A DNA stretch of 27,743 nucleotides from a virus. Lineage: Duplodnaviria > Caudoviricetes. Positions 1 through 27,743 of this stretch are shown one piece after another; position 1 is the stretch's first letter; every line of letters starts with the position of its first letter. The stretch covers positions 1-27,743 of the IMG/VR virus record IMGVR_UViG_3300028283_000176. One strand, written 5' to 3'. The position numbers and the translations under genes were made by a program. The notes under the pieces were generated by a model that worked only from the letters and a program-made list of their open reading frames with translations, did no database searches and was not told the DNA's origin.

Positions 1-95
1 GATTCACTGAGACTCTCCAGTATGTAAGACCTAGTAATCGATTCAACTACTGATAGTTGAGTATTGGCATCAGATTTTGGTATGAGAGCTTGCAT
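1..95 (-). CDS. N-terminus of a protein running off the left edge, possibly a Cre-like tyrosine recombinase
   Basis: Not in the ORF track. GGAGG RBS (cctcc 101-105), ATG at 95, open frame MQALIPKSDANTQLSVVESITRSYILESLSES. 'RSYILESLSES' resembles the ..YI..SLSENT(RRAY) start of the integrase N-terminal SAM-like domain. The gene start is well supported; the product is inference from about 31 aa. Confidence 0.45.
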   Translation of the reverse strand, partial: MQALIPKSDANTQLSVVESITRSYILESLSE

Positions 96-114
96 TTTGA
101 CCTCCAAAAAAAAG

Positions 115-147
115 TTAGTTCCGAATCCAGAAGGTTATCGGAAGTAA
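115..147. other. Candidate tyrosine-recombinase core site (13-7-13 bp, loxP-like geometry)
   Basis: TTAGTTCCGAATC-CAGAAGG-TTATCGGAAGTAA. The outer 10 bp of the arms are inverted repeats with 9/10 identity around an asymmetric spacer, 20 bp upstream of the putative recombinase start. Confidence 0.5.
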
Positions 148-157
148 TCTTGAATAG

Positions 158-173
158 TTTATCGGCCGATAAA
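158..173. repeat. Perfect 16-bp palindrome TTTATCGGCCGATAAA
   Basis: Read directly. Its half-site TTATCGG is identical to 135-141 in the candidate core site. Confidence 0.75.
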
Positions 174-229
174 TCTTTTCATGACGCCAAAATATTGTAG
201 ACTAGCCTCCTCAAACCGAGGGTAATTTT

Positions 230-880
230 ATGCGATTTAGAACGGCATTGGCAGTGGTAGTGATGGTTTTCGTGGGAAGCACAAGGGCAGAGGAGATTTT
301 AGGGAAGGTCACGGGAGTACACGACGGCGATACGATTACTGTATTAACACCTGCAAACAAGCAGTACAAGATTAGGCTTGGTGAGATTGACACGCCAGAA
401 TCTAAGCAGCCATGGGGAACAAATGCAAAGAAGGGGCTATCTGATCTGGTGTTCGGTAAAGAGGTTAGAGTGGTCGTGCAAAACGCTGACCGTTATGGCA
501 GAACTGTTGGAAGGGTGTATGTGGGGAGTGTGGACGTAAATTTGGAGATGGCGAAGTCTGGTAATGCGTGGGTATATCGGCAATATGCTAAAGATCAGGC
601 GTTATTCAAAGCCGAAGATGAAGCGAAAGCAGCTAAACGCGGTTTGTGGTCTTTACCAGAAGCTGATCGTATGCCGCCGTGGGAGTGGAGAAGTGGTGGG
701 TTCACTAAGAACACAGTGGCTCCAGCGGACACATCTAGCTTCAAGTGCGGTGCTAAGAAGATGTGCAAAGAAATGACTTCGTGTGACGAGGCAAAGTTTT
801 ATCTGGTTAAGTGTGGTGTGTTATCTCTGGACGGCAACAAAGACGGCGTACCATGCGAAGCGTTGTGTAAAGGACAGTAA
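230..880 (+). CDS. Thermonuclease (SNase-family) with signal peptide and C-terminal Excalibur Ca-binding domain
   Basis: Motifs VHDGDT, IRLGEIDTPE, DRYGR, AKAAKRGLW, PPWEWR; C-terminal CKEMTSCDEA...LDGNKDGVPCE; hydrophobic N-terminus. Confidence 0.93.
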   Translation: MRFRTALAVVVMVFVGSTRAEEILGKVTGVHDGDTITVLTPANKQYKIRLGEIDTPESKQPWGTNAKKGLSDLVFGKEVRVVVQNADRYGRTVGRVYVGSVDVNLEMAKSGNAWVYRQYAKDQALFKAEDEAKAAKRGLWSLPEADRMPPWEWRSGGFTKNTVAPADTSSFKCGAKKMCKEMTSCDEAKFYLVKCGVLSLDGNKDGVPCEALCKGQ

Positions 881-888
881 GCGAAAGT

Positions 889-2250
889 ATGACCACTCAC
901 GTTACCCTGTCTGGTTTCTTGCAGCCTTTGGCTAATGCTGTAAAGTCTGTGGCTATTAGTACGTGGGTAACGGCAGAGATTAGCGACGTACAGGACAAAG
1001 GACATGTTTACATTACGCTGATAGAGACTGACGCTGTTGGCGTAACCGTTGCGAAATTAAAGTGCTCTATTTGGGCTGGCTATAAAAAGAAGGTGATCTC
1101 TCGTTTCCATGACGGCACGGGAGGTGAGAAATTACGGACAGGCATAAAGGTGTTGGTACTCCTTAAACCGTCTCTAAGCCTGAGCTATGGCTTAGGTGCG
1201 ACTATTGAGGACATTGATCCGTCGTTTACTCTTGGAGAAGCTGCACGACTGCTTATTGTTTTACGTGATCGTCTAAAGAGTGAAGGGATATACGACAATC
1301 AACGCAAATTTAGAACACCCACAGAATATACCCGCGTTGCCGTGTTATGCCCAGAGGATTCGGCAAGCCTAGGAGATTTTAGATCACAAGCTGATCCTCT
1401 TAACGACGCTGGTATTTGCCGCTTTGAGTATTTCTCGGCAGCATTCCAAGGTGACCGCGCTGCTATTGAGATTGTTAATTCTCTCCGTTCTATTTACCGT
1501 TTACATATATATAAACCATTTGACGCTCTGGTTATTATTAGGGGTGGAGGGCCGCAGTCTGATTTGTCGTGGTTAAATGAGTACAAAATCGCGGACGCTA
1601 TTACTAAGATGCCTCTTCCCGTTTTCACTGCTATTGGACATGAGCGCGACTCTACAATTCTCGACGAAGTAGCACACAAGAGCTTTCACACGCCTTCAAA
1701 AGTGATATTAGCCATTGCAGAAGACATCTGGAAAAACACGTGTGACGCACAATCAGATTTCGACTACATTATGTCTGTTGCTGGTTTTTCAGTCGAGCGA
1801 GCAACCTTGAACTGTGACGCTTGTTTGGCAACTGTTAAGGAAGTTTCGAATAGGCAAGTACAGGTTACAAAAGGGAATATCGAATCTGGTATCAGTAGTG
1901 TAGATTCTTATGCCAAGAAGCGTATATCGTCAACTGAGCAGTGGCTATCTCGTAGCAGAGAGTCTATACGTGGTGGGGCCACAACGGCTTTATCAGTGTC
2001 GAGCAACAATATCAGTACGCAACGTAACTTGGTTCGTGATCGATCAGAATCGGCTATTCAGAGAGTACAAGATCGGTTGCGGGAAAGTGTAGAGTTTGTT
2101 ATTGGCGTCGGCCCCGGCAATACCTTGCAACGAGGATTTGTAATAGCTAGGTCTAAAGGGAAGGTTATTACTAGAAAAGCGCACGTTGAAAGCGGCGACC
2201 GTGTCGATTTACAGTTTGCAGATGGTAACCTAAGCGCAACAGTTGAGTAG
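889..2250 (+). CDS. xseA: Exodeoxyribonuclease VII large subunit
   Basis: OB-fold start (WVTAEIS..GHVYITL), ASLGDF, IIRGGG..DL, AIGHERD, TPS, helical region, and the C-terminal TLQRGF...FADG signature. Confidence 0.92.
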   Translation: MTTHVTLSGFLQPLANAVKSVAISTWVTAEISDVQDKGHVYITLIETDAVGVTVAKLKCSIWAGYKKKVISRFHDGTGGEKLRTGIKVLVLLKPSLSLSYGLGATIEDIDPSFTLGEAARLLIVLRDRLKSEGIYDNQRKFRTPTEYTRVAVLCPEDSASLGDFRSQADPLNDAGICRFEYFSAAFQGDRAAIEIVNSLRSIYRLHIYKPFDALVIIRGGGPQSDLSWLNEYKIADAITKMPLPVFTAIGHERDSTILDEVAHKSFHTPSKVILAIAEDIWKNTCDAQSDFDYIMSVAGFSVERATLNCDACLATVKEVSNRQVQVTKGNIESGISSVDSYAKKRISSTEQWLSRSRESIRGGATTALSVSSNNISTQRNLVRDRSESAIQRVQDRLRESVEFVIGVGPGNTLQRGFVIARSKGKVITRKAHVESGDRVDLQFADGNLSATVE

Positions 2251-2255
2251 TTTAC

Positions 2256-2453
2256 ATGTCAGAATCCGAAACGTTCAAATCTCATTACGACAATCTACGC
2301 AAGATTGCCGAAACTATGCGATATCAGCAAGAAACAGATATTGACCAGCTAATCCCAATGGTTGACTCTGCCTTGACCAGCTACAGGGTATGCAAAGAAC
2401 GTCTGGACGTGGTTAAGAAGCTACTCGATGACCGCTTCAAAGATAGCGACTAA
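2256..2453 (+). CDS. xseB: Exodeoxyribonuclease VII small subunit
   Basis: 65 aa helical protein, TFKSHYDNLRKIAE...IDQL..MV...YRVCKERLDVV pattern, 5 nt after xseA. Confidence 0.85.
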   Translation: MSESETFKSHYDNLRKIAETMRYQQETDIDQLIPMVDSALTSYRVCKERLDVVKKLLDDRFKDSD

Positions 2454-2768
2454 CTATCTGAGTAACGATTCTTTATACGCAACCTTTAGCTTCTCAACGT
2501 TTGTTTTCTCTCCGAGCCTGAGTAACATTTTAATCACGTCCGTTTTAGCCACTTCGCGTTCAAATCCCATTTCTACTATTATTCTTTCTAGCCTCTCGAG
2601 CTTCTCAATATCAGATAGCCGAAGACGGTAGCACCTTTTAGCCATTGAGATTCGTTTCTTGCGCTTCACTAGTCCAAGCGGTTTTGGTGGCTTTGTTATT
2701 TCCTCTAAGACCACGGTATTGGATAACTTCGTAGTTGATCCCGATCCCAATTTACCAACCACCGTCAT
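2454..2768 (-). CDS. Small basic ParA partner, probable ribbon-helix-helix centromere-binding protein (type Ib ParG-like)
   Basis: Overlaps the parA 3' end by 17 nt with an AGGAGG RBS. Flexible basic N-terminus, then strand-helix-helix pattern KRCYRL-SDIEKLERL-AKTDVIKMLL. No ParB/Srx motif. Confidence 0.6.
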   Translation of the reverse strand: MTVVGKLGSGSTTKLSNTVVLEEITKPPKPLGLVKRKKRISMAKRCYRLRLSDIEKLERLERIIVEMGFEREVAKTDVIKMLLRLGEKTNVEKLKVAYKESLLR

Positions 2769-3507
2769 TTACCTCCTGCGCTAACTTCTGAAAATCAATA
2801 GCCCCGTGGCTTTTGGGATTAAACACCGAAACAGGGACTCCGTTGATTTGTGATTGGTTTATAGACTCATTCTTACGTATCACGGTATTCAGTAGCTGAA
2901 ACGTTTTTAGCTGTTCCTCCACAAAGCTATTTGTAGAAGTCGTGCGAGTATCAAGAGAGTTTCGCAAGATTCGATAGTCAATTCTCCGTTCTTCGTATAT
3001 CTCACAAAGCGTGGCAAATAGGTCTCCCACACCGTCCAGCGCGTACCTTCCGTAGCTGGTTGGGATAAGAATCTTGTCGGCAGTGTAGATGGCATTGACT
3101 GAAATCACGCCCAGCGTTGGCGGACAATCAAACAATAAATAGTCGTATTCAGATTCAATCTTTTTAAGAAGATTGTGCAAAATACGCTCACGAAAGTTTC
3201 TCTGTGAGATTGCCTCGGCCACTATTCCAAGTTTCAGACTAGACGGAACAATAGAAAAGTTTGGCACCTCTTCTGATCTAACTTTCGCTGTAAAAATGAT
3301 TGGATTGATATCTACACCATTGCGAACTAGAGCATCTGCAATGCTTAAGCCGCTATGGTTTGGTAGGTAGATAACCGTGGAGTGTGCCTGCGAGTCAAGG
3401 TCTATCAGTAGAACGCGGCGTTTTAGTCGTGTCAACTCATACGCTAGATTGACCGCTACGGTTGTCTTCCCAACCCCGCCTTTTTGGTTAATAACCGCAA
3501 TTTTCAT
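2752..3507 (-). CDS. parA: ParA/Soj-family partition ATPase (no N-terminal HTH)
   Basis: Deviant Walker A NQKGGVGKTT, LLIDLDSQA, Walker B LFDCPP; 251 aa; GGAG RBS. Confidence 0.95.
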   Translation of the reverse strand: MKIAVINQKGGVGKTTVAVNLAYELTRLKRRVLLIDLDSQAHSTVIYLPNHSGLSIADALVRNGVDINPIIFTAKVRSEEVPNFSIVPSSLKLGIVAEAISQRNFRERILHNLLKKIESEYDYLLFDCPPTLGVISVNAIYTADKILIPTSYGRYALDGVGDLFATLCEIYEERRIDYRILRNSLDTRTTSTNSFVEEQLKTFQLLNTVIRKNESINQSQINGVPVSVFNPKSHGAIDFQKLAQEVNDGGW

Positions 3508-3624
3508 TCTAAAATCTCCAAAATCTCAATAGGTTATCTGTGTTTTTGTGCGGCACCTAGTGTACTTGCCACATTCCCTTATACTGCCTATCTATCTACT
3601 CCCAAAGAACCTCTAAGCATAGGT

Positions 3625-3674
3625 GCGACATGACATCACTAAAAATAAAATAACACAACACACAATGACGTCGC
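3625..3674. repeat. Phased degenerate pentamer array upstream of parA (candidate centromere/operator)
   Basis: GCGAC ATGAC ATCAC TAAAA ATAAA ATAAC ACAAC ACACA ATGAC GTCGC in one unbroken 5-bp register; the first and last units (GCGAC/GTCGC) are inverted repeats. Confidence 0.45.
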
Positions 3675-3677
3675 AAT

Positions 3678-3766
3678 GAAGGGACAAGTAGAGTACGATA
3701 ATTTTCTATTAGAATCAGATATTTACGTTACTTTTGGCAGGCATGAAGGGACAAGGAAGGGACAAG
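3678..3766 (+). repeat. Three exact 11-bp direct repeats GAAGGGACAAG
   Basis: Copies at 3678-3688, 3745-3755 and 3756-3766 (last two tandem); the first two are both preceded by AT. Confidence 0.8.
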
Positions 3767-3833
3767 GATAGATAGTAGTCAAGGCTAAAAATCGGTGCTA
3801 GATTATGACAATCAACTATTACTAGGTGACAAC

Positions 3834-4298
3834 ATGAACAAAGCGATTGTTAGCGCAACACTGATGTTTGTGAGCATGAGTGCCGTGGCCGCGAGTTTTT
3901 ACAAGTGCACGGATGCCAGCGGCAACGTTAGTTACGTTACTGACCCATGCACTGGGACGTCTGCCGTTGTCAATGTCCCAACCTCTCCCAAAGTAGATAC
4001 TGAGCAGTTAAAAACACAGGCAAAGAAGAACACAGAGGCCGATGAGAGAATTTCTAAGACACTTGCGCAGGAAGAGAAGGATCGGAAGATTCGGGTATTA
4101 AAGTCTCGGATTGGTTCTGCACAGAGCTCGATGGAAATCGAAATGTACAGGCTTAGCCGAAAGAAATCTTATGCCATGAACAATTTAGCGGGAGCGACTT
4201 ACGAGCAAAGCATATCTGCGGAAATGCAAGCAGTGGCCGCAAAATACGATTCCGAAATTAGGTCTTTGCAAGCCGAAATTGATTTGGTTTCGAAATAG
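3834..4298 (+). CDS. DUF4124-like exported protein with C-terminal coiled coil
   Basis: Start moved to ATG 3834 (AGGTG RBS). Signal peptide MNKAIVSATLMFVSMSAVA, then FYKCTDASGNVSYVTDPC, the typical DUF4124 motif. Confidence 0.75.
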   Translation: MNKAIVSATLMFVSMSAVAASFYKCTDASGNVSYVTDPCTGTSAVVNVPTSPKVDTEQLKTQAKKNTEADERISKTLAQEEKDRKIRVLKSRIGSAQSSMEIEMYRLSRKKSYAMNNLAGATYEQSISAEMQAVAAKYDSEIRSLQAEIDLVSK

Positions 4299-4419
4299 TT
4301 TTGATTGAGGTTTCAGTTTGAGGGTAAAAGGCACGGTGCGCGTGTGATTGATTCTGGGAAGCATCACAGCAACGGCTCTATGGTTCAGCAGCTACGCTGG
4401 TCACGTGACGTGTTTGCGT

Positions 4420-5079
4420 CTATTCCCCCGAAGAGGAGTCTGCTTTCTTAGTATCTGAAGCTAGCTCTACACTAGCACCAACAAACTTAAGCAGCTTGTA
4501 CGCGGTCTTGCAGTGTTCCCCTTCTCTTTCTATTAACGTGCAATCCAAATCGAGCTCAGCGGCTGCTAGACCCGTTACGCCTGATCCTGCGAATATGTCC
4601 ACTACACTCTTCACCTCGAATGATCCGAGTATGTCCGTCCACGCTTGTGTGTTCTTAGCATACCCGTGCTCTCTCTTAACCATATCCGAACCTTTTGGAG
4701 CACGAAACAGCGTAGGCCAGTAGTGGTTATCAAAGAACACGTCTTGCCTAGCCCTTAGTTTTCTATTGAACGCACTCTTCCTACCCTTCGCTTTCCAGTA
4801 CGTGCCCGTGTTATGAGCATAATTGGGAGACTTGTAGGACATTGATCGTTCTTGAGATACCGTATCCAACACGAAATCAAAGCAAAACTCCATTTCAGTT
4901 ACTTTGCTAAAAGTTAGTAATTGCCGCATTGAGGACACCAACACCAAGTGCTTTATCTCGTAACGTTTAATGGCGTCGTTTAGTTTCAGCCCGCACATTT
5001 CGAATGGTGGATCGGTCATCATCAGGTCAAACTTTCCTGAGTGTAGCTCTGCGCTGCTGTTGATTATCTTGATTGCCAC
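4420..5079 (-). CDS. DNA amino-methyltransferase (N6A/N4C, beta-class motif order), compact
   Basis: Motif IV DLMMTDPPF near the N-terminus; H...K and motif I VVDIFAGSGVT near the C-terminus; overlaps the helicase end by 16 nt. Confidence 0.8.
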   Translation of the reverse strand: MAIKIINSSAELHSGKFDLMMTDPPFEMCGLKLNDAIKRYEIKHLVLVSSMRQLLTFSKVTEMEFCFDFVLDTVSQERSMSYKSPNYAHNTGTYWKAKGRKSAFNRKLRARQDVFFDNHYWPTLFRAPKGSDMVKREHGYAKNTQAWTDILGSFEVKSVVDIFAGSGVTGLAAAELDLDCTLIEREGEHCKTAYKLLKFVGASVELASDTKKADSSSGE

Positions 5080-6674
5080 TTTCTATAGGCTCCCAGTGCC
5101 TTTTTGGTATTCGTTTCCTGCAAATCTCTTATTGTGAAATGATCCGTCCAAAACTTGTGATCGTGTAATATCTCGCGTTTTCTTAGAAACTCGTTTAACT
5201 CACGAGGAGGGATATCTTTCTTTATGCTTTCAACGAACCAACAAATTAGCTTTTTGCACAACTGACTAATAACATCGGTTCTCCAGTGAATCTCTGGTAT
5301 TACCACTTCTTTTCCCATTCTCTGGCTATCTTCCTTCTCTAATAGTTTTTTGTCTAACTCTCTTCTATGTACCTCTACTATTCTAGCATCAATACGTTCC
5401 TGATTTACGTAGTGACCACCAACTGTGCACCTAGACAATAACGGATTGTCATCGCTGCATTCAGGACACATCAATAGTTTCATGTTGTAAATAGCTCGAC
5501 ATTTTGGGCAAGGCAAATACTGGCTTGCACTCTTTGAGAACCTATCGTTAATTGACCATTTCACGTGCTCATCAGGAAAACCGTGGTGTGCAATGTTTCC
5601 AGCACAGTCTAAGATGATTGCGTGTTCCTTGCCTGCATTCGTCCTCAATGACCTACCAATCCATTGGCGATATAGAATGAACGAGTCAGTTTTTCTAAGT
5701 AGAATCATTCCATCAATACCGGGCATATCAAACCCTTCACCAATCATATTCACGTTGCACAACACTTTTATTTCTCCACTTGCAAATGCGTCCATTCGGT
5801 TTCCTATTTCCGTGTCGGTTAATGAGGACGCAATAAATGAGGAGGGTATACCATCACTTCTAAAACTCTCTGCGCACTCCTCCGCATTGTTGATTGAAAT
5901 ACACATGACAACGACTTGCTTGCCTTTCATTATCTTCTTGTAGTGCTCGACCGCGTCACCAAAGATTTGTTTATCGAATGCCGCTAGCAAAGAATCTTGT
6001 GTGTAGTCACCGCCTATAATCTTTAGTGACTCCACTTTGATCTTATTCACTGCTGCGTAGCACTTGAAGCCAGACAGCGTGCCTCTTTTGATGAGTGTTT
6101 TTACGCTGTCCACTTTCAGTTCTTCAGACTGTACTAGCCTTTCGAATAGCCCACCGTCTTTAATGCCTAAGCTATTGCCGTCATGGCGAGCTGGAGTAGC
6201 AGTAAACCCGATGATCCTAGCATTCGGAAGTATCTCCTTTACCTTCCCCCACTTGTTCTTTTCAAGTGCGTGGTGTGCCTCGTCGATTACGATAACCCAT
6301 GGGGTATTGGTATCTAAAGCGATATCACACCTTCTTTTCATTGCAAGCAAGCTATCAATACTTGCTACTAGCTTTGTTTTATTTCCTCTCTCGATGTAGT
6401 CTACCCCGTGTTTTCTAATATGAGATAGTTGGCAGGATCGGCGGGTATGTTCAGTGCTAATTGTGTCGTGTGGTATTTTGAACGCGGCTAGCTTTTCGCT
6501 AATTTGAGTAATGAGGATGTTACGGTGCGCAACAAGCATCACGTGTGAATAGTGAAGTGCAAGCATGGCTTCAATGATTGTTTTACCTGCACCTGTATCT
6601 AATTGAACTATGTCATGTGTATTGCTTGATATTAGACTGTTAAAGATTTCTTGTTGATAGTCGCGAGGTTTCAT
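5064..6674 (-). CDS. SF2 DEAD/DEAH-box helicase (phage/RadD-like) with C-terminal Zn ribbon
   Basis: PRDYQ, LDTGAGKT, IDEAHH, GFTATP, EGFDMP, QWIGRSLR, ILDCAGN, CPKC...CPEC. Start placed at ATG 6674. Confidence 0.92.
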   Translation of the reverse strand: MKPRDYQQEIFNSLISSNTHDIVQLDTGAGKTIIEAMLALHYSHVMLVAHRNILITQISEKLAAFKIPHDTISTEHTRRSCQLSHIRKHGVDYIERGNKTKLVASIDSLLAMKRRCDIALDTNTPWVIVIDEAHHALEKNKWGKVKEILPNARIIGFTATPARHDGNSLGIKDGGLFERLVQSEELKVDSVKTLIKRGTLSGFKCYAAVNKIKVESLKIIGGDYTQDSLLAAFDKQIFGDAVEHYKKIMKGKQVVVMCISINNAEECAESFRSDGIPSSFIASSLTDTEIGNRMDAFASGEIKVLCNVNMIGEGFDMPGIDGMILLRKTDSFILYRQWIGRSLRTNAGKEHAIILDCAGNIAHHGFPDEHVKWSINDRFSKSASQYLPCPKCRAIYNMKLLMCPECSDDNPLLSRCTVGGHYVNQERIDARIVEVHRRELDKKLLEKEDSQRMGKEVVIPEIHWRTDVISQLCKKLICWFVESIKKDIPPRELNEFLRKREILHDHKFWTDHFTIRDLQETNTKKALGAYRKWQSR

Positions 6675-6686
6675 AATCTCTTTTGT

Positions 6687-6713
6687 AACAAACAAAAGCC
6701 CGATTTCTCGGGC
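6687..6713 (-). terminator. Intrinsic terminator
   Basis: Minus strand GCCCGA-GAAA-TCGGGC followed by TTTTGTTTGTT, just after the 6737-7291 gene. Confidence 0.75.
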
Positions 6714-6736
6714 AACGTAGTTACATCTGGTAAAAA

Positions 6737-7291
6737 CTAGAAATAAATCCCATTCCTCATTATCATGTCTTTCCCTGTTGCTTCTTTGAGAGCACGCAAC
6801 ACCTCCTTTTTTGCTATATCCTTTCTCCAGGCAAATGACACTGACACCGTCAAGTCGTGCTTTACCGACCGTACTACGCCGTCCTTGTATACCACCCGCG
6901 CTCTATACACATTTCCTGCCACCATCACGGGAACCTCTATTTCATTCTCCTTGCTCCACTTGCCCCATTCCACTCCCTCAAATTCCAGGCCTTCCGACGT
7001 ATTCTCTGCCACGTTTTCAATCTCATTCGACAAAAGCCCGAACGAACTGCACGACCTCGCCTTCTCCCTGTCGTTCCAGTGCTTCCTGTTCATTCGCCAG
7101 GTTTTGTCCGCGTCTTGCAGTGAAATCTTAACTCCCCTCTCTTTGAAAAACCGACTAAACAAATACTTGTTCTTTGCAAATAATTCTATGATCCTGTCGC
7201 ACTGCTCATATGTCAACAACCCTGCCAACGACCTATCGATCAACGATGATACAACAATCTTCTTTACTGCAACTTGTTTGTACTTGTTCAT
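6737..7291 (-). CDS. Hypothetical protein (basic, 184 aa)
   Basis: ATG with purine-rich RBS, co-oriented with neighbours, followed by a terminator. No family recognised. Confidence 0.75.
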   Translation of the reverse strand: MNKYKQVAVKKIVVSSLIDRSLAGLLTYEQCDRIIELFAKNKYLFSRFFKERGVKISLQDADKTWRMNRKHWNDREKARSCSSFGLLSNEIENVAENTSEGLEFEGVEWGKWSKENEIEVPVMVAGNVYRARVVYKDGVVRSVKHDLTVSVSFAWRKDIAKKEVLRALKEATGKDMIMRNGIYF

Positions 7292-7305
7292 AACTTCTCT
7301 CTCTT

Positions 7306-7333
7306 AAAAGTAACCCACGATTGAATTCGTGGG
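7306..7333 (-). terminator. Hairpin / weak intrinsic terminator
   Basis: Minus strand CCCACGA-ATTCAA-TCGTGGG then TTACTTTT, 9 nt after the 7343 stop. Confidence 0.55.
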
Positions 7334-7342
7334 GGAATTGGA

Positions 7343-8296: not shown

Positions 8297-8313
8297 GTCC
8301 GTTCTCCATGCTT

Positions 8314-8396
8314 TCAAGTGCGTTCACTTGATAGAGAACAGTCTACAGTTTATTTTGTTTTGTTGTATACCTATAAAGAGATATATTAGAGATATA
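8314..8396 (-). promoter_or_regulatory. Putative sigma70-like promoter with upstream direct repeats and downstream inverted repeat
   Basis: Minus strand TATACA(8369-8364)-18 nt-TAGACT(8345-8340); AGAGATATA repeated at 8377-8385 and 8388-8396 (11-bp period); perfect IR TCAAGTG-cgtt-CACTTGA at 8314-8331. Confidence 0.45.
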
Positions 8397-8406
8397 ACAG
8401 GTTAAT

Positions 8407-8778: not shown

Positions 8779-8780
8779 AG

Positions 8781-9005
8781 CTAGATACTCAAAGTGGTTA
8801 CTGAACCAGCAGGTGCTAACCCAGTGATTTTTCCGTTCTGCACATAAACCCTCGATCCTTGGGCGAACCCGACACCACTAACAGTGGAATACGAGTTGGA
8901 AGGTAATAGCTTCACTAATGAGGTATCCGAATAGACGGTTACTATTTCACAGACATAGATCGGATATTGCTTTACTAGAGATTGAAATGCTTTGTATGCG
9001 TTCAT
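8781..9005 (-). CDS. Small tail-tip protein (OB-fold-like)
   Basis: MNAYKAFQSL...GSRVYVQNGKITGLAP pattern and position after the hub-like gene; ATGA overlap. Confidence 0.6.
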   Translation of the reverse strand: MNAYKAFQSLVKQYPIYVCEIVTVYSDTSLVKLLPSNSYSTVSGVGFAQGSRVYVQNGKITGLAPAGSVTTLSI

Positions 9006-10939: not shown

Positions 10940-10941
10940 AG

Positions 10942-11642: not shown

Positions 11643-11648
11643 ACTTAT

Positions 11649-16443: not shown

Positions 16444-16448
16444 ACGAG

Positions 16449-20763: not shown

Positions 20764-20781
20764 TATATTTTCCTAATGCGA

Positions 20782-21210
20782 TCAAATAGAAACAAGCTTG
20801 ATACTGCTAATCCTATACACATACGAATCCCCGGGGTCGGCAGGCGAAAATGAATTGCAAATCGGGATTGGTTCTGCTTTTAATGCGCCTGATTCGCCTT
20901 GTAACGGCCTTACCGTGAATTGCCTACTATCGTGTAACGTGAGAGTAAATACCGCGCCAGCCGTCACCAAAGCCGCGTAGAGAGCCTTTAACGCAAGCCT
21001 AGACATTTCCACAGTGTGATTAGTACCGTCCTGTTGACCAATTAGAGTAATTGGCCTACCCGCTTGTTTGGTTGCTTCTCGTACAATAATTGCGCCAGTG
21101 ATCGTATATTCTGTAGATTGCGCAGTGGGAGACCATAAAAACTCATCAGACCAGTAGAGACCGTTTGGTAAAATAAAACTTCCGAGAGAAACACTAGTAA
21201 GCGTAATCAC
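20782..21210 (-). CDS. Distal-tail (Dit)-like protein
   Basis: LP.GLYWSDEF.WSP.AQSTEYTITGAIIV.EA.KQAGRPITL...LTLHDSRQFTV motif; GTG start overlapping the upstream TGA. Confidence 0.7.
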   Translation of the reverse strand: MITLTSVSLGSFILPNGLYWSDEFLWSPTAQSTEYTITGAIIVREATKQAGRPITLIGQQDGTNHTVEMSRLALKALYAALVTAGAVFTLTLHDSRQFTVRPLQGESGALKAEPIPICNSFSPADPGDSYVYRISSIKLVSI

Positions 21211-21665
21211 TCAAATAGCCTCCAACTTTCTTGAGAAGAGAAACTACCAAGCGTGTCATATCGCACAATTCCAGTTTGTGATCCACAATACGGTACTAAA
21301 TAAACATACCTGCCATCGAAGATTGCTTTTGAACCATTGAAATCTGCTGATGACATATCGAAATCCTGTGGCACACCCAAACTCGGAATAGCTGGTGTCA
21401 TATTAGAAACTACCGACCTTAACACTGAGAACAGTAAATCCTTTAGGGAGTCTAGGTTAGTTTCTGTTACCGTGCCTGTAGCTATCTGGCCAGTTTCACC
21501 ACGCGGCCCTGGTGTTCCGATATTAAAAATCCTTTCAGAATCACCAATCGTTACGTTAATATCGGGGGGCGAAATAGAAACTGGAAGTTCTGGGTTTTCA
21601 ATAGCAACTACTAAAGCATTTCTTAGATCAACTAATACCGAAATTTCGGCTGTATCCAAAGACAT
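21207..21665 (-). CDS. Short fibre-like protein with collagen-like GxP triplets and one FDGRYVY beta-propeller-type repeat
   Basis: GTPGPRGETG then AIFDGRYVYLVPY...VRYDTLGSFSSQESWRLFE. Confidence 0.55.
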   Translation of the reverse strand: MSLDTAEISVLVDLRNALVVAIENPELPVSISPPDINVTIGDSERIFNIGTPGPRGETGQIATGTVTETNLDSLKDLLFSVLRSVVSNMTPAIPSLGVPQDFDMSSADFNGSKAIFDGRYVYLVPYCGSQTGIVRYDTLGSFSSQESWRLFE

Positions 21666-21666
21666 T

Positions 21667-22038
21667 TCAGGTACTCCGGGTAACGTCTTCGATCACCATT
21701 ACCTGTCCGATATCAAGCGTACGAATAGTGGACGGCGTATCAGATTCCGCGACTTGGAAATCATAATAATACCGTCCCGGGGTTACTAATGACGTGTCAG
21801 ATGCGGGTATATGTATCCACACAATCCCGCGTTCTGGGTTATCGTTTGCGTTATCGCCTGCAGTGCTCGTAAATTGAAGATCGGCATCCGCATCTTCTTT
21901 TGATAAGTCGCTTTTTAGTGTAACCCAGAATTTCCAGCCAGTTAAATCAACTGTGCTCGAATTAACCCCCGTTATATTTATCTTCCTTTCCCATGTGTCA
22001 CCCCGAACAATAGTTTTCGAGAAAAATAATTGAGACAT
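21667..22038 (-). CDS. BppU N-terminal-like Ig-fold fibre adaptor
   Basis: IVRGDTW...VDLTG...I.I.ASDT....GRYYYDFQV...G.V.V..DVT pattern. Confidence 0.7.
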   Translation of the reverse strand: MSQLFFSKTIVRGDTWERKINITGVNSSTVDLTGWKFWVTLKSDLSKEDADADLQFTSTAGDNANDNPERGIVWIHIPASDTSLVTPGRYYYDFQVAESDTPSTIRTLDIGQVMVIEDVTRST

Positions 22039-22047: not shown

Positions 22048-22824
22048 TTATGCAGATAGGTCGAGGTACTCAAAAGCCCATGGGGAAGAATAACTAGACG
22101 GTGTAATTAAGTCGCCTGCTAGTTTACCGTTTAAGTACTCTCCCTTGACTGGGTCAATAGTTCCGTTTGGTGCTAATTGCGCCTTGTGCACCAACACTCG
22201 TACTTTCTTCTGTGTTGACATTTCAGTACCAGTACCTAGCAGCATGATATTTGCGCTACTCACTTTTCCTGATGCGTAAGATTCGCCTGCACGCGTTGAC
22301 TTCGTATAACTAATCTTTGTAATAGTTACGCCTGTGGCCGTGGTGGCTTTGAACAAACCATTTACCAAGTCCACCTCGTAATTAACTGGATCAATGGTGC
22401 TAGAGCCCGCTTTTGCGGTAATCTCAGTACCTGTTCCATCTGGGGTAATGTATTTATTCGCAAGGGGAATCCATGCACCTAGTACTGGTGTAATCAGCTC
22501 GTCCGCTACCGCACCACTGGTTTGTGAAATAGTAGAGGCATTAGCACCGAGCAATAGAGATAGCACATTGCCAGTCATGCTGTTGAATTCAACGTTAATC
22601 TTTGCGGCGTCTTTTGGCACAAACTGAGAGTCTAATATCTCACCGTAGCTACTTAGCATATTAGATTTTAGCTTTACAATTTCTTGCGTTGCGCCCGTGA
22701 TTTCAACTTTCGTTAAGTTTATCGGACCGTAAAAGATTGTTGGTGCGGTTGCTCCATTCCAAAAGCCGTATTTGAACTCACAGCGTAGGTAAATAGAACG
22801 ATTAGTAGTAACGTCAATGGCCAT
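22048..22824 (-). CDS. Major tail tube protein
   Basis: Start moved to ATG 22824 (GGAG RBS). Follows the gp37-like gene; beta-rich with an inserted domain (YEVDLVNGLF) and C-terminal LAGDLITP...PW. Confidence 0.75.
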   Translation of the reverse strand: MAIDVTTNRSIYLRCEFKYGFWNGATAPTIFYGPINLTKVEITGATQEIVKLKSNMLSSYGEILDSQFVPKDAAKINVEFNSMTGNVLSLLLGANASTISQTSGAVADELITPVLGAWIPLANKYITPDGTGTEITAKAGSSTIDPVNYEVDLVNGLFKATTATGVTITKISYTKSTRAGESYASGKVSSANIMLLGTGTEMSTQKKVRVLVHKAQLAPNGTIDPVKGEYLNGKLAGDLITPSSYSSPWAFEYLDLSA

Positions 22825-22825
22825 A

Positions 22826-23245
22826 TTATTCTCCAATAAAATAATTAGTTCCAAAATTGATAGCGATCGCTAATATCCCGTCTATAAAAATTGGTGGTGG
22901 TGAGCTTTCGAGTTTGAGTGGGTAAGCCATTTCTGCATTCGGAGACCAACCATTTAGCGTTGCGCAAACTTTGTTGATAATAGATTGAGCATCTGAACGA
23001 GCAGATTGGCCGTCTTTTGTTTCATGTGCATTTCTAACTACAATTTGTATTTGCCAATGAACCAGCATTTTTGAAATGTAGTCACCTTCTTCAGATTCCG
23101 CGGTCATTCCGTTATACAAAACATAAGCACAGGGCATAGGCCGCGATAATTCAGATTTACCTGTTGGAATTCCGTATACCCCTAATAGCTCAGGTACTTT
23201 AGATTCCAGCCGACCACGAATAGCCTGTTCAAAACGCAATGGCAT
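22826..23245 (-). CDS. Mu gp37-like tail terminator/completion protein
   Basis: EQAIRGRL...P.AYVLYNG...WQIQIVVRNA...LNGWSP pattern and position. Confidence 0.7.
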   Translation of the reverse strand: MPLRFEQAIRGRLESKVPELLGVYGIPTGKSELSRPMPCAYVLYNGMTAESEEGDYISKMLVHWQIQIVVRNAHETKDGQSARSDAQSIINKVCATLNGWSPNAEMAYPLKLESSPPPIFIDGILAIAINFGTNYFIGE

Positions 23246-23246
23246 T

Positions 23247-23717
23247 TCAGATTCCCAGATGATTCTTTATTTCACGAAGTACGTTGTCTTTCCATTCCTG
23301 AGACATTAAACCGTTAGAGGTAATGAGCATTTGTCGTGCTGGAATATCTCCCCATGGCGCATTTCCTCCGAAACTTCCTTTCTTTGCTCCGAATTGTTGC
23401 GTAGTCGCATAGATAACATCCGTGCCGATTGTGACGCTCTTATTTGTCGCCGTGTACGCAAACGAATTAGCAAGTTTGCCCGTGTCATATAAAATCCTGT
23501 TAGATTGATTGCCACGAAGTTTTCTACGTTTAAGCGTAACGGGAGATAAAACAGCCCACGGTGTGCCTATTGGATTCCTTTCCCCCTCAAACCTCGACGC
23601 TATATTTTTCAATTCCGTTTCACCTAGGGACGCCATTACTGGTGTCATATCTAATAGCTTCGATAACAGAGAAGAAAACGCATTAAATGAGCTTCGAGTT
23701 TCTATGCTAAATTTCAT
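23247..23717 (-). CDS. Phage virion morphogenesis protein (Mu gpG-like)
   Basis: RFE.E.NP.GTPWA.LSP.T..RR, IL.DTGKL..S, IGT.V.YA..QQFG, IPARQML. Confidence 0.9.
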   Translation of the reverse strand: MKFSIETRSSFNAFSSLLSKLLDMTPVMASLGETELKNIASRFEGERNPIGTPWAVLSPVTLKRRKLRGNQSNRILYDTGKLANSFAYTATNKSVTIGTDVIYATTQQFGAKKGSFGGNAPWGDIPARQMLITSNGLMSQEWKDNVLREIKNHLGI

Positions 23718-24135
23718 ATTTCGCTAACCATGAGCTATTAAAAACAATGGTTTTAGTACCGACGGATATTTGAGAAGAGCCTGCTGTTGTTGTCTTTTGA
23801 ATTTCTGGTGCTAGGCTTGCCGATCCATTTGCAATTTCTTTAAGAGACTTCATTGCCGAATCGTAACGTTTAGAAACATCTTCGGGCGTTTGCCCATTTA
23901 CCATTGCTAATTGATACCACGCGATTTCAACTGCAATATCTAATATTTCTGGTGGTAGTGAACTAAAAGGAACCACATACCTAGCCCTAAGGTGCCTGTC
24001 GATAATTGATTGAGTAGTGAAAACCGCTACATCTAATCTCGCGAGATCAGGAAATCCAGTGCCGTCATCCAGTATTTGTTCTACTGTTTGTAGTCCGTAT
24101 ACCGAATCTAAATCTTCGCGAGTTAGATAGGCCAT
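23707..24135 (-). CDS. Mu gp36-like head-tail connector (DUF1320)
   Basis: YLTREDL...IDRHL.ARY.VP....P..L...A..IAWYQL...RY..A.K.L..IA.G. Confidence 0.88.
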   Translation of the reverse strand: MAYLTREDLDSVYGLQTVEQILDDGTGFPDLARLDVAVFTTQSIIDRHLRARYVVPFSSLPPEILDIAVEIAWYQLAMVNGQTPEDVSKRYDSAMKSLKEIANGSASLAPEIQKTTTAGSSQISVGTKTIVFNSSWLAKYEI

Positions 24136-25115
24136 TAGCTAATCGTCAGTTTGATAATTGCAGCGGGTCGAGTAACTAAATTAAGCGGATTGCTCTGTGC
24201 TTCAATTACGTAGCCTTTCCCTAATTCGATTGGCTCTGATTTCGCGTAATACGGCAGGCCGAGCGTATTTACAGTTTCCACATAGTTAGCAGGAGCAAAG
24301 CGGCTAATACAAAGACCGGGAACGCCAATCGGAATTGCATATGCGTCATTACCAAGGTTTACTGAAGACGTGCCTCGATACCATTCCCAATTTGCACCAA
24401 AAGCAGTAAAAGACGCTTCAGGATTGCCGCGCAGTTCATTTGCTTGGATTTGATTTAGGTACGTTGCCTTGACGTCTTTATCCTCTAGTAACGCTGCCCA
24501 GAATGCGTCGCCACACAACACCGTAATACCGTTATACGAAACGCCGTCTAGTGCGCTATTCACCTTCTGCAAAACCTCAAACATCTTTTTACGGATGGCC
24601 GAGGAAACGGTGGTAGAGAGTGCTAGTGCATGCGTCTGTTGAGAAACGCCAAACGTGGTAAATAGGCTTTGCAAGTCTCCATTTGCGTCGTAGTAATTAC
24701 CCATTACCGCTTGTGTACGGTGAGATTCAATCGTGTAGTCAATGTTCCGACGCATAATAGAAAGACGGTCATTGATTCGAGAAGTAAGCATCTCGGACTG
24801 GCTTTCCATTCCGAACACTCGCACGCCTTGCACTTCATCAGCGAGAATTAGCGCGCGTTCTGGCAAGTGAGGAATTCGGAAGCTCCGAATTTTTCGCTTT
24901 TGTCCAGTAACTGGTTTTCCGGGAGCGCCTCGGGGTTGAATATCAACGAGAGATAGAATTCCGTCTTGCTCTTCGATAGCAACGTCTAATGTAGATACCC
25001 CTGACTCTTCAAACACTTTTGAGAAACGAGCTGGGGTATATTTGAGATTATTGATTGCGCCAGTAAGTGTGTTAAGACTAAACGCAGAAGGCGTGAATGG
25101 ATCGACCATAGCCAT
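24135..25115 (-). CDS. Major capsid protein (lambda gpE-like family)
   Basis: Start moved to ATG 25115 (GAGGAG RBS). FSLNTLTGAIN, PRGAPG, PHLP....ILADEVQGVR.FG, FAPANY.ETVNTLGLPYYAK, QSNPL...TRP. Confidence 0.93.
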   Translation of the reverse strand: MAMVDPFTPSAFSLNTLTGAINNLKYTPARFSKVFEESGVSTLDVAIEEQDGILSLVDIQPRGAPGKPVTGQKRKIRSFRIPHLPERALILADEVQGVRVFGMESQSEMLTSRINDRLSIMRRNIDYTIESHRTQAVMGNYYDANGDLQSLFTTFGVSQQTHALALSTTVSSAIRKKMFEVLQKVNSALDGVSYNGITVLCGDAFWAALLEDKDVKATYLNQIQANELRGNPEASFTAFGANWEWYRGTSSVNLGNDAYAIPIGVPGLCISRFAPANYVETVNTLGLPYYAKSEPIELGKGYVIEAQSNPLNLVTRPAAIIKLTIS

Positions 25116-25117
25116 AA

Positions 25118-25489
25118 TTAACTCCTCACAAAAACTGAAAGTGCTGCGAGATCGGCAATGCCTGCGGTTTTGTCTCCAGCTGAATTTGCAGATGCCCAAA
25201 CGATTTTTTCGCTTGCCACTTCTGCATCACGACAAATCATTACTGCGTCTTGATCTGCACTAGTCGCATTAACCGAGTTATATAAAATTCCCGCGAGCAG
25301 TTGTGTACCATCCGTTAGATTGTTGTCGTATACGTTATATTTCCCAGTCGCGGTAACCTTCCCTAGTGCTGTACCTGATTCCAATATGCCCGCGCCACTC
25401 GCCACTACCACCACTTCTCGACTAATAGTTCCATTAGCTTCTGCGAGAATGAATTCACCCACGCGATTCTTTTCTGTTAGAGTGCTCAT
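25118..25489 (-). CDS. Head decoration protein (gpD-like)
   Basis: EFIL.EANG.ISRE...L.SGT.LGKVTATGKY...DG.Q..AGILY...RDAEV; lies between protease and capsid. Confidence 0.85.
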   Translation of the reverse strand: MSTLTEKNRVGEFILAEANGTISREVVVVASGAGILESGTALGKVTATGKYNVYDNNLTDGTQLLAGILYNSVNATSADQDAVMICRDAEVASEKIVWASANSAGDKTAGIADLAALSVFVRS

Positions 25490-25878
25490 TACTTACCTCC
25501 TCGACGAACTGAATAAATAGACGCAGTGTCTAGGCCAGTCTCTTTTGGAACAGTGTCGCCAATGGCCTGCTCTTGCATTAGGTTTAAAGGTAATGGACGC
25601 TTAGCAATCGATAGTAAATCCGAGGAAAGCTGCTCAAATACTTCTTGAGAAAGAGATATGTACATCTTTTCTTGAGAGTCCGTAATTTGCCGTCCCAAGC
25701 TTTTGAACAAAGACAAAACGGCAGATTTTCGAGTAGCCGCGCGTTCATTAGACAAAGCCGATTCAGCAGCGATTGCACGGGTTTTCCACTCGTCCAGCTT
25801 TGCGGATAGCTCCAATACTTTGTTGTCTGGCAAAACCGCTTTGGTCTCGACAGAGTCGATTTTTACTGTGTCAGTCAT
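25489..25878 (-). CDS. Nested in-frame scaffold protein (internal start)
   Basis: In-frame ATG at 25878 preceded by AAGAAGGAAATAACAAC, just after the protease domain, as in Mu gpI/gpZ and lambda gpC/Nu3. Confidence 0.6.
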   Translation of the reverse strand: MTDTVKIDSVETKAVLPDNKVLELSAKLDEWKTRAIAAESALSNERAATRKSAVLSLFKSLGRQITDSQEKMYISLSQEVFEQLSSDLLSIAKRPLPLNLMQEQAIGDTVPKETGLDTASIYSVRRGGK

Positions 25879-26409
25879 GTTGTTATTTCCTTCTTTTTTA
25901 ATTGCGGAAAAAAACGAAGCATTCGTAAATCTGTCTGCTCCGAGAGATACGATAGAAACCTCTCTTACTACACCGTTTCTTAGAACCGATACCGGAGCCT
26001 CAAAGTCGCGATTGTTGATTTTTGTTGTACCCTTCGAAATCGTTTCAAAATCGAAATCAAAGATGCCAATGGACATTTGATACGTAGCACCCCTGAAGGC
26101 CTTTTTAGCTATGCCAGCTGCGGTCTCGTCGATATCAGAGAACAGCACGCCAGACACTTTCAGAGTCGCGCCATCATTCGACACGCTAGAAATAAACCCG
26201 ATTACCTCGTCGTGCTCATGCTGAAAAAGCAGTGGGAGACTTTCGGCAATCTGGGTAGTAGCAAGGTCAATTAAAACTCCACCATCAACTGCTGATCCCG
26301 AATACGCGACACCCTCGAATTTCGTGGGTAGGTCAGTATTCTCTTGGTCTAACTTGACAACAGAAGAAAGGTAAAAAGTCTTTTCAGATTTTGGTATACT
26401 ATTTGGCAT
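25489..26409 (-). CDS. Prohead maturation protease with C-terminal scaffold
   Basis: FEGVAYSG, PLLFQH...VIG, QMSIG, REVSIVSLGAD..T, followed by a helical scaffold region. Confidence 0.85.
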   Translation of the reverse strand: MPNSIPKSEKTFYLSSVVKLDQENTDLPTKFEGVAYSGSAVDGGVLIDLATTQIAESLPLLFQHEHDEVIGFISSVSNDGATLKVSGVLFSDIDETAAGIAKKAFRGATYQMSIGIFDFDFETISKGTTKINNRDFEAPVSVLRNGVVREVSIVSLGADRFTNASFFSAIKKEGNNNMTDTVKIDSVETKAVLPDNKVLELSAKLDEWKTRAIAAESALSNERAATRKSAVLSLFKSLGRQITDSQEKMYISLSQEVFEQLSSDLLSIAKRPLPLNLMQEQAIGDTVPKETGLDTASIYSVRRGGK

Positions 26410-26502
26410 AACACTTGACCCTGTAATTTATTGATACAGAATAAAGTGCCAATCTAAGTAAGCAATAGAAATAAGTTTCGTTTTTTATTTCGCGAGGAAT
26501 TT

Positions 26503-27609
26503 ATGAGATTTCAGATTACAAAGGCAGACTTATTGCCAGCACTTAAGAAAGTTGCGAGCATTGCTGAGAAAAAGAATCGGCTTCTAATTCTCGACAACAT
26601 ATTGCTAGAGGCTGATGATTCGCGGATTGTTCTAACGGCTACGGATTTGGAGGTGGGCTTATCAGCTAACGTACAGGTTCGATCTTCTGAGAAAGGCCGC
26701 ATTACCGTGTCTGCCAAAAAGTTTTTGGATATTGTGAAAGCGTTACCTGAGGATGCGGATTTAGATTTTTCCGTAGACACTCAACGTGTTACATTGCGAT
26801 CTGGCAAGAGCAAATTCACATTAACCACGCAGCCTGCAGAAGAATATCCGAATATCGAAAGCGTAAAGGACGGGAAAAGGTTTCAAGTACCTCAATCCGT
26901 TTTGAGAAGTCTATTCTCCCGAACCAGTTTCGCCATGGCAGCTAATGATGTGCGCTATGTTTTGATGGGAGTGTTATTGGAGGTAGAACATGGAAAGCTT
27001 CGAGTATGTGCAACGGATGGGCATAGAATGGCATTCTGCGACATGACAGAGCACCTTGAATCCATTCCTAATACTCAAGTCGTTATTCCTCGCAAGGGTG
27101 TTATGGAGCTATTAAAGCTATTGCAGGATTCAGAATCTCTTGTAGAAGTGATCATCGGCATCAATCACATTTGCGTAGTTTTCCCAGAAGTCACCTTCAC
27201 ATCAAAACTGATAGACGGTAAGTTTCCAGAATACAAGCGCATCATTCCACAATCGAGCCCAAACACAGTAACCGCAGACCGTGACGAGTTAAAACGCGCC
27301 ATCCAACGTACCGCTATTATTTCTAACGAGAAAGTGCAAGGCGTTCGGATTCAAGCGGAAGACGGGAAATTGATCATTAAAACAGACAATCAAGAAGGAG
27401 AAAACGCAGAGGAAGAAATGAGCGTCAGCTACGAAGGAAGCCCCATAGAGATTGGCTTTAATGTGAAATACGTTTTAGACGCGCTAAGCAGCAGTATTAA
27501 GACCGATTACGTAGAGATTGGTCTCACATCACCAGACAATAGCGCGACGTTCAAAGACCAAGGCTCCGATACTTGCGTGAACGTCATAATGCCGCTTAGA
27601 CTGAAATAG
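26503..27609 (+). CDS. dnaN: DNA polymerase III beta sliding clamp
   Basis: 368 aa; ATDLE, FAMA.NDVRY.L.G, ATDGHR, IPRKGV.EL, KLIDGKFPEY.RIIP, IGFNV.Y.LD, VIMPLRL; GAGG RBS. Confidence 0.97.
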   Translation: MRFQITKADLLPALKKVASIAEKKNRLLILDNILLEADDSRIVLTATDLEVGLSANVQVRSSEKGRITVSAKKFLDIVKALPEDADLDFSVDTQRVTLRSGKSKFTLTTQPAEEYPNIESVKDGKRFQVPQSVLRSLFSRTSFAMAANDVRYVLMGVLLEVEHGKLRVCATDGHRMAFCDMTEHLESIPNTQVVIPRKGVMELLKLLQDSESLVEVIIGINHICVVFPEVTFTSKLIDGKFPEYKRIIPQSSPNTVTADRDELKRAIQRTAIISNEKVQGVRIQAEDGKLIIKTDNQEGENAEEEMSVSYEGSPIEIGFNVKYVLDALSSSIKTDYVEIGLTSPDNSATFKDQGSDTCVNVIMPLRLK

Positions 27610-27617
27610 CAGGCTAG

Positions 27618-27743
27618 ATGAGCGAGACAATCCAAATTGGGGAGATTTCGATTCTGGTCACGAGGAAGGACGTCAAACATGTCCACCTTTCGGTTTATCC
27701 TCCAGACGGCCACGTTACGTTGGTCACTCCAAGCGAGACGCGA
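27618..27743 (+). CDS. N-terminus of YgjP/DUF45-like (SprT-type) metal-dependent hydrolase, runs off the right edge
   Basis: Not in the ORF track. ATG 8 nt after the dnaN stop; MSETIQIGEISILVTRKDVKHVHLSVYPPDGHVTLVTPSETR matches the RK.(I/V)K..HLSV.PP.G.V N-terminal motif of this family. Confidence 0.75.
   Translation, partial: MSETIQIGEISILVTRKDVKHVHLSVYPPDGHVTLVTPSETR

Follow-up and report, generated by a model that had tools for sequence, protein, structure and literature searches.

The 27,743-base window analysed here (positions 1–27,743, the whole of virus record IMGVR_UViG_3300028283_000176) is part of an element of approximately 62 kb from lake water that has been assembled at 61,760 and 61,897 bp. 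The element is best explained as a circular phage-plasmid lying outside the ten defined phage-plasmid types, a reading to which a probability of about 0.55 is assigned. An operon for the head, neck and tail of a siphophage is physically linked in the window to a block of plasmid-type genes, which includes a ParA pair and the start of a Cre-type recombinase gene preceded by a lox-like site; both the recombinase and the site belong to a conserved family. A preliminary description of the window had proposed a phage-plasmid, and the gene content and linkage behind that proposal largely hold; the plasmid state itself is probable, with neither a Rep nor circularity seen in the 57% of the element that was read.

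The element and its assembly

The DNA that could be read amounts to 35.1 kb (57% of the element), namely the window and 7,369 bases to its right from a metagenomic contig region (L002), with the remaining 26.6 kb outside the scope of this analysis. The 32 open reading frames (ORFs) of the window and those of the right-hand extension were scanned against protein-family libraries. L002 was found by a capsid search of metagenome contigs and stems from the 61,760-bp contig; all 13,606 of its 13,606 bases that overlap the window are identical to it. By coordinates, the window would correspond to bases 12,070–39,812 of that contig, the DNA having been compared over the right half only. Nine window proteins have entries on contigs of up to 61,897 bp; for ParA, XseA, a thermonuclease (SNase), the tape measure protein, DnaN and the recombinase the contig is one of 61,897 bp. 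For one window protein, a variant is registered on the 61,760-bp contig.

Window DNA is found in lake-water metagenomes, three of the five listed runs containing most of it, two of them possibly the source of the record; none of the listed runs containing window DNA is an RNA dataset. In two of the four runs compared, a single contig spans positions 1–10,000, from the recombinase to the tail tip, with zero differences, and a third run covers pieces of the par, helicase and tail genes at similar depth (about 2.6–7). The uninterrupted contig speaks against a chimeric assembly, though these two runs may be the source and are thus not independent of it. An exact pattern from the window start had no match in viral contigs. 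The plasmid-like and virion genes have similar GC content (0.42–0.48), and copies of a promoter/operator element described below flank the virion operon on both sides; both features fit one long-integrated replicon. At its right end the window enters the start of a YgjP-like gene (27619–27743, plus strand; PF01863 in L002). The window runs 127 bases past position 27,616 and the contig of one run 30 bases, and this gene start is probably a repeat, shared with another replicon, that broke the assembly.

The virion operon

The virion genes form a minus-strand run from position 26,409 to 8,407 that begins with the protease and ends with the tail tip. The head decoration protein (PF02924) and prohead protease (phrog_3244, E 1e-23) are encoded at 25118–26409 and are followed by a gpE-family major capsid protein (24135–25115; PF03864, E 3e-76). 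The neck genes (22826–24135) encode a gp37-like terminator (PF23840, E 1e-19), a gpG-type completion protein (PF05069, E 2e-24) and a gp36 adaptor (PF07030, E 1e-23). The tail tube (22048–22854) is of the siphophage type (NF052337, 104 bits against a cut-off of 60; phrog_807). It is followed by three small virion-region ORFs (20782–22038; phrog_4408, phrog_1084), a tape measure protein of 1,258 amino acids (16987–20763; PF20155, E 6e-49) and a tail-tip module (8407–16042) with products of 1,079, 385, 98, 134, 645 and 74 amino acids (phrog_6128, 9998, 27013, 3758, 6079 and 5076) and one further ORF of unknown function. Homologs of the tail-tip proteins occur in RS138, AS1, S1, PCA1 and pHm21. 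Head, neck and tail, the virion part of a phage-plasmid, are represented by family matches, and neither a sheath family nor a transposase was identified among the 32 window ORFs. This bears out the preliminary description, which had read the operon as a gp36/gpG/gp37-like neck with a gpE-like capsid and a sheath-less tail, in a window devoid of transposase. Between the tape measure and the tail tip (16039–16987) lie three short ORFs with no family match, two of low complexity.

In three relatives (L003, G004 and G001:C90) the same head follows a Terminase_6 gene and a Mu-type portal. In three other close relatives (L001, L004 and L022) the portal does not directly precede the protease, so the gap before the protease is not diagnostic of decay. 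A capsid search at E ≤ 1e-80 across the 251 genomes of the G004 order matched two, neither of them new. MuF head proteins are fused to an ADP-ribosyltransferase domain in two relatives (L108, 2597–4735; L118, 5170–7218), and a MuF-like ORF (L131, 2–1150) is apparently interrupted by an insertion carrying an overlapping ORF on the opposite strand. The gene order of L004 is rearranged: its head genes lie downstream of tail-tip genes and are themselves followed by very long fibre-like ORFs (412–8518, 11049–20975).

The recombinase and its lox-like site

The first feature of the window (1–95, minus strand) is the 5′ end, 31 codons long, of a tyrosine recombinase gene that continues to the left. 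A 40-residue query from this open frame retrieved a single protein, P0128, of 317 amino acids with a PF00589 domain, recorded on the 61,897-bp contig. Against the protein data bank, Cre or Cre-derived entries are the top 17 of 20 rows for P0128, and the best Cre entry (E 5e-19) ranks above XerD (2e-7). The alignment with Cre preserves the catalytic R, K, H-x-x-R and Y residues, with H where Cre has W. Cre-type site-specific recombinases are described as having 300–400 amino acids and an R-K-H-R-(H/W)-Y catalytic set in the accessible part of PMC10250229, and P0128 conforms on both counts; no arm-binding domain was matched in it. The preliminary description had deduced a putative Cre-like recombinase from the 31 codons, correctly as it turned out.

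Homologs of P0128 are abundant on plasmids (183 records at E ≤ 1e-40, the best being a Methylomonas plasmid at 54% identity), while the phage matches comprise 28 records at E ≤ 1e-15, mostly P1-like at about 25% identity. Two gammaproteobacterial orders also have homologs of P0128, in 5 of 401 genomes of one and 14 of 380 of the other. When viral contigs were scanned with the recombinase, the one contig retrieved (9.6 kb) was unrelated, and the 400 bases of it that were read showed no matching site. The 324- and 184-residue ORFs of the early region were considered as recombinases and rejected, as no library supports this.

The lox-like site (115–147, minus strand) lies about 20–50 nt upstream of the recombinase start. 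A half-site of the window recurs within 250 bases upstream of the gene at 12 of 20 homolog loci, 3 of which offer no usable upstream sequence, compared with 10% of 2,000 random stretches. At the six closest homolog loci, from five genomes and apparently including a Methylomonas plasmid, both arms are kept at the same position; the layout is 13-8-13 and the spacers differ. It is also the layout given for Cre-type target sites in the same partial source (PMC10250229). Conservation before homologs shows the proposed lox-like site to be real, although a window-wide scan found that it departs from 13-8-13. The site of the window, with one more base between its arms and a degenerate proximal arm, is identical in contigs of three of the four runs compared. 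It could recombine with a longer overlap, could act purely as an operator, or could have decayed. A perfect 16-bp palindrome at 159–174 consists of two lox-type half-sites, as found by a half-site scan, and could be a second binding site. A look-alike of a loxP arm at position 7717 was rejected, being inside an ORF and lacking a second arm. As a side observation, the members of this recombinase family in two gammaproteobacterial orders (L139–L144, L146, L147, L150, L153–L155) have a conserved palindromic site with differing spacers and are candidate recombinase/site pairs.

The surroundings of the recombinase probably vary in the population. A sister recombinase, P0249, on a 9,470-bp contig is 95% identical overall, with residues 1–113 identical and about 92% identity thereafter, and one run has a contig that matches window positions 1–175 exactly and then diverges. 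Together they indicate that the cassette occurs in other contexts, perhaps through recombination or strain variation around it. The contigs of three runs all start 321 bases to the left of the window, which, taken with the sister recombinase, suggests two alternative left-hand continuations of the cassette. The possibility that the left end of the window is a recombination junction inside the lox-like site was rejected, since the contigs of three runs cross the site unchanged.

Partition and other plasmid-type genes

A short Walker-type ParA (2752–3507, minus strand; PF13614, E 5e-45) is encoded together with a partner of 104 amino acids (2454–2768, minus strand), likely the centromere-binding protein by homology to ORFs that follow plasmid ParA genes. 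ParA is 51% identical to ParA of Skermanella pSM-4, where the gene lies beside RepA, and to that of Rickettsia felis pRF, and its best phage matches reach 37%. On both plasmids a small ORF follows ParA, and the 104-residue partner is homologous to it (31%, E 6e-10 for pSM-4; 26%, E 5e-5 for pRF p04). A partition pair of the kind carried by pSM-4 and pRF is accordingly predicted by homology. The preliminary description had named the partner a ribbon-helix-helix (RHH) protein; the ParA and the pairing are upheld, and the RHH assignment found no family or structure match, although the alignment has a strand-helix-helix look. The sole full-length relative of the partner among 1.84 billion representatives is a protein of 98 amino acids (E 1e-4).

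Upstream of parA are three copies of one 11-mer (3678–3768; copies at 3678, 3745 and 3756), which could serve as parS or as an operator. The repeat arrays proposed earlier shrink to these three copies: the 11-mer is absent elsewhere in the window, and repeat scans found no iteron array. A scan of viral contigs with ParA returned no locus, and ParA at E ≤ 1e-55 had no match in 401 genomes of the order of G003.

The same left-hand block encodes a thermonuclease (SNase) with an Excalibur domain (230–880, plus strand; PF00565, E 4e-27, and PF05901), the large subunit of exonuclease VII of plasmid type (xseA, 889–2250, plus strand; TIGR00237 above cut-off), its small subunit (xseB, 2256–2453, plus strand; NF045605, 80.6 bits against a cut-off of 40) and a DUF4124 protein (3795–4298, plus strand; PF13511). 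XseA matches 88 plasmid records at E ≤ 1e-20, with 39% identity at best, so exonuclease VII is common plasmid cargo. Near the other end of the window a beta sliding clamp (dnaN, 26503–27609, plus strand; TIGR00663 above cut-off) lies outside any dnaA-recF context, and with it the proposal that the element carries its own exonuclease VII and clamp is confirmed. The best other protein for the clamp is 66% identical (P0002) and the remainder at most 52%; a viral scan with P0002 returned no locus. In a related phage contig of the same IMG set as L001 (L011, 1–6021), a beta clamp lies beside a reductase, a TSCPD protein, an SSB, a lysozyme, a terminase and a Mor-like gene.

Early region and control

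A likely early operon (4420–8317, minus strand) comprises two unknown ORFs of 324 and 184 amino acids, an SF2 helicase (phrog_16, E 2e-75) and a DNA methylase-like protein (PF01555); no family beyond phrog_16123 was named for the 324-residue ORF. Upstream of it is a promoter-like element with a palindromic core (8312–8400, minus strand), which recurs 2.3 kb to the right of the window (L002, 5,077–5,147) in 33–35-base matches. The pattern has two matches at ≤2 mismatches against a mean of 0.27 in 30 shuffles, a comparison biased by the pattern having been drawn from one copy. A third copy is found in contigs of matching depth (13.5 against 14.2, and 55.6 against 55.8). These elements may be repressor-controlled early promoters; promoter and terminator counts in positions 1–9,000 equal chance. 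To the right of the window are YgjP, a ligase-like remnant, a SLOG protein, phrog_19042, Gp157, a split AAA_25 gene, a TSCPD reductase domain and an Ant antirepressor. A 258-residue ORF there (L002, 5967–6743) has a weak match to part of the NAD-dependent ligase family (phrog_3869, E 2e-9).

Comparison with known phage-plasmids

The element resembles P1 in having a Cre-type recombinase with an adjacent palindromic site, a Walker ParA and an Ant antirepressor domain. P1 also has dispersed C1 operators, which the repeated operator at dispersed promoters of the element recalls. The idea of P1-like maintenance put forward in the preliminary description has thus gained from the Cre relationship, the family-conserved site and the likeness of the ParA pair to plasmid pairs. 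There are also differences from P1. The recombinase is only about 25% identical to Cre and the site is off by one base in geometry. A short ParA with a small partner replaces ParA/ParB, no ParB or sheath family was found, and the sheath-less tail, with its siphophage tube above cut-off, and the gpE-family capsid belong to an element of about 62 kb, whereas P1 is a myovirus of about 95 kb.

Among plasmids with a related virion, two circular records, Kingella potus p1Npotu (NZ_CP091517) and Acinetobacter pANC7933.2 (NZ_CP156782), have the DUF935 portal, a gpG-type protein, the capsid, the tape measure and the same tail-tip module, with gp36 also annotated in p1Npotu. They differ from the element in carrying a site-specific integrase and lambdoid control genes, have no annotated ParA and no ParA or Cre match, and share only 4 and 5 of 40 element proteins, respectively, at 27–39% identity. 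The N15-like phage-plasmid pHm21 of Aeromonas veronii (NZ_CP059397) shares the tail-tip module and a gpE-family capsid and has ParA/ParB and Rep; it differs in its protelomerase, lambda-type portal, S49/ClpP protease and lack of a Cre-like match, with 8 of 40 proteins shared at 21–36% over the 50 kb compared. A Halomonas qaidamensis XH36 plasmid (NZ_CP080628) encodes the best plasmid match to the capsid (42%), a short ParA followed by small ORFs, and a tyrosine recombinase, and differs in its lambda-type head and different tail (3 of 40 proteins shared). This Halomonas record also has, beside its tail genes, a reverse transcriptase and a four-helix-bundle gene (L010, 25638–27319), an arrangement resembling a diversity-generating retroelement. 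In the portion of Table S1 available from PMC12977533, the Kingella, pHm21 and Halomonas records are members of sparse phage-plasmid communities and none is placed in a defined type.

Among Cre-type recombinases of plasmids, those of Methylomonas AM2-LC plasmid CP157007 and its relatives are 53–55% identical to that of the element and are preceded by the same arm sequence at the same place, the arms of the element being one base further apart. The five genomes with the closest recombinase homologs yielded no gpE capsid.

The ten types of the tyPPing scheme, as given in the accessible text of its paper, are AB_1, P1_1, P1_2, N15, SSU5_pHCM2, pMT1, pCAV, pSLy3, pKpn and cp32. None of them was recognised among the listed plasmid matches of the capsid and tail, an indirect comparison, and the 39 plasmid capsid matches include no N15-like record from Enterobacteriaceae. 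Identity to plasmid proteins peaks at 42% for the capsid and at 38% for a tail protein. Each of ten comparison replicons has 8 or fewer of 40 proteins in common with the element, mostly at 25–45% identity, four of the ten having been compared in part. A portal of this head family has matches in 6 of 72,556 plasmid records, none of which is a small ParA-bearing circle by the annotations of two of the six. No record examined combines this virion with ParA and a Cre-like gene. Literature searches found no published description of such an element, from which its absence from print does not follow. The host is likely a gammaproteobacterium: the capsid is 62–64% identical to contigs in metagenome-assembled genomes of Chromatiaceae and 54–57% to those of Methylococcaceae, the relatives of the clamp are labelled Gammaproteobacteria, and the recombinase is closest to Methylomonas.

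Meaning of the Mu-like neck

The preliminary description took the Mu-type neck as a mark of transposable phages, which is too strong. The set of DUF935 portal, gp36, gpG, gpE capsid and tail also occurs in integrase-type temperate phages (pANC7933.2, p1Npotu) and in a chromosomal prophage (G001:C90), the same set is found in a 97%-complete virus record (G010) with no transposase family in its scanned ORFs, and the tail module is present in the protelomerase-bearing pHm21. Since one of the integrase-type carriers (NZ_CP091517) is itself listed as a putative phage-plasmid community member, the pairing of this virion with plasmid functions is an ordinary module swap and not a contradiction. Ralstonia phage RS138 and Marinobacter phage AS1, both transposable, are sheath-less Mu-related phages with a Mu-type neck (Virfam neck type 1, cluster 8) whose tail-tip homologs are 31–33% identical. 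The element differs from them in that its 35.1 kb contain no transposase, MuB or gpT-type capsid, the capsid being PF03864, and neither a MuA/MuB transposition gene nor Mu ends were found there. The Mu-related neck cluster includes phages both with and without a sheath, according to the part of PMC4362835 available. By these comparisons, "Mu-like" is the name of a widespread neck module, not of a lifestyle, and does not imply transposition.

Proposed mode of maintenance and alternative explanations

The element would be a temperate siphophage of about 62 kb, kept by its lake host, probably a gammaproteobacterium, as a circular plasmid at low copy number. Segregation of the circle would fall to a type Ib-like system made up of ParA, the 104-residue partner and the 11-mer repeats. 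Like Cre in P1, the recombinase would act on its lox-like site to resolve dimers and might also circularise DNA that enters the cell. A repressor encoded outside the 35.1 kb could shut the dispersed early promoters through the repeated operator, and Ant could relieve this. In the lytic cycle, replication and recombination would draw on the helicase, Gp157, the clamp and exonuclease VII, and the products of the operon would assemble into particles with a gpE-type head, a Mu-type neck and a long tail that does not contract. Genes for the terminase, portal, Rep and lysis would presumably be found in the remaining 26.6 kb. If these steps hold, the element is maintained like P1, yet it is not a P1.

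Several observations weigh against this explanation. No circularity was seen, and the near-equal assembly lengths are at most suggestive of a closed replicon. The 35.1 kb yielded neither a Rep nor a terminase, portal, MuF, holin/endolysin, repressor or protelomerase, and a profile of two related terminases picked out no protein of either long contig (61,897 and 61,760 bp) in the 120 best of its 631 matches. The RHH fold of the ParA partner is not confirmed, with no family or protein data bank match and with Atlas leads (0.88–0.89) below threshold. Compared with the sites of the six closest homologs, the lox-like site has an additional base between its arms, and the proximal arm is degenerate, for which reason it may not recombine. 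The AAA_25 helicase/primase-like gene (L002, 2440–3211) is split into two parts that are in different frames, which may point to decay. ParA and Cre-like matches are missing from all seven whole contigs of relatives with this head, one of them a chromosomal prophage and another a provirus, and likewise from all 90 capsid- or protease-anchored loci, the latter a weak test given flanks of ≤10 kb and a distance of 21 kb here. Lastly, the same tail module occurs in a Mu-like prophage inside an Aeromonas plasmid.

The Aeromonas case lends some weight to a first alternative, unlikely yet deserving of consideration, in which an ordinary plasmid with a Cre-type resolvase, xseAB and a ParA pair carries an inserted temperate phage, either excisable or transposable, or else defective, lacking packaging genes and in need of a helper phage. 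The plasmid-type genes do form one block at the left (1–4300), each with plasmid homologs, and the recombinase cassette recurs in other contexts, as seen in the sister on the 9,470-bp contig and the contig diverging after position 175. The split AAA_25 gene and a virion operon that begins at the protease, with no portal or terminase in the 35.1 kb, would suit a damaged phage; a protease without a directly preceding portal is, however, equally seen in L001, L004 and L022. Moreover, no junction, att repeat or composition step was detected between the plasmid and virion blocks, and approximately 62 kb would leave little room for a full plasmid beside a phage of 40–50 kb.

The element could instead be an integrating temperate phage or prophage island with captured plasmid genes, its recombinase acting as the integrase and its ParA being a passenger or a stabiliser of the excised circle. 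The closest virion modules do come from integrase-type phages and chromosomal prophages, the asymmetric site could be a hybrid att-like junction, and the tape measure is also recorded from a source labelled "gem", which may mean that the contig was binned with a genome. This alternative is nevertheless improbable: the 317-residue recombinase is of the Cre type, has no matched arm-binding domain and has abundant homologs on plasmids, two assemblies stop at nearly equal total length, and family scans found no chromosomal operon within the 35.1 kb. An assembly chimera of an unrelated plasmid and phage is very improbable, for although the assembly forks at both ends (in the recombinase gene and in YgjP) and the junction-spanning runs may be the source, two runs give the unbroken contig, a third agrees in depth, and no repeat is present at the block boundary.

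Significance

Defined phage-plasmid types are few and mostly enterobacterial. The tyPPing paper, in its accessible text, recognises ten types and 355 putative singletons and calls for new types. A bolder proposal, speculative at present, is that the element founds a phage-plasmid type, not described before, that arrived at the P1 strategy on its own in lake Gammaproteobacteria, with a Cre-type resolvase shifted to a site with a 9-bp spacer, a par pair of Rickettsia/Skermanella type, dispersed repressor operators, its own clamp and exonuclease VII, a siphophage particle with a Mu neck, and a head operon split from the packaging genes. Aquatic phage-plasmids with ParA have been reported before, in the part of PMC4490671 available, so the element is not a conceptual surprise. 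A directly testable by-product, perhaps more useful than the element itself, is a recombinase family with a conserved site and variable spacers, one member of which has a site one base longer. A complete example from an uncultured lake host would carry the P1-like strategy of Cre-type resolution and partition over to a virion lineage whose other carriers in this analysis are integrating and Mu-like phages, and would show that lifestyle modules move independently of the particle.

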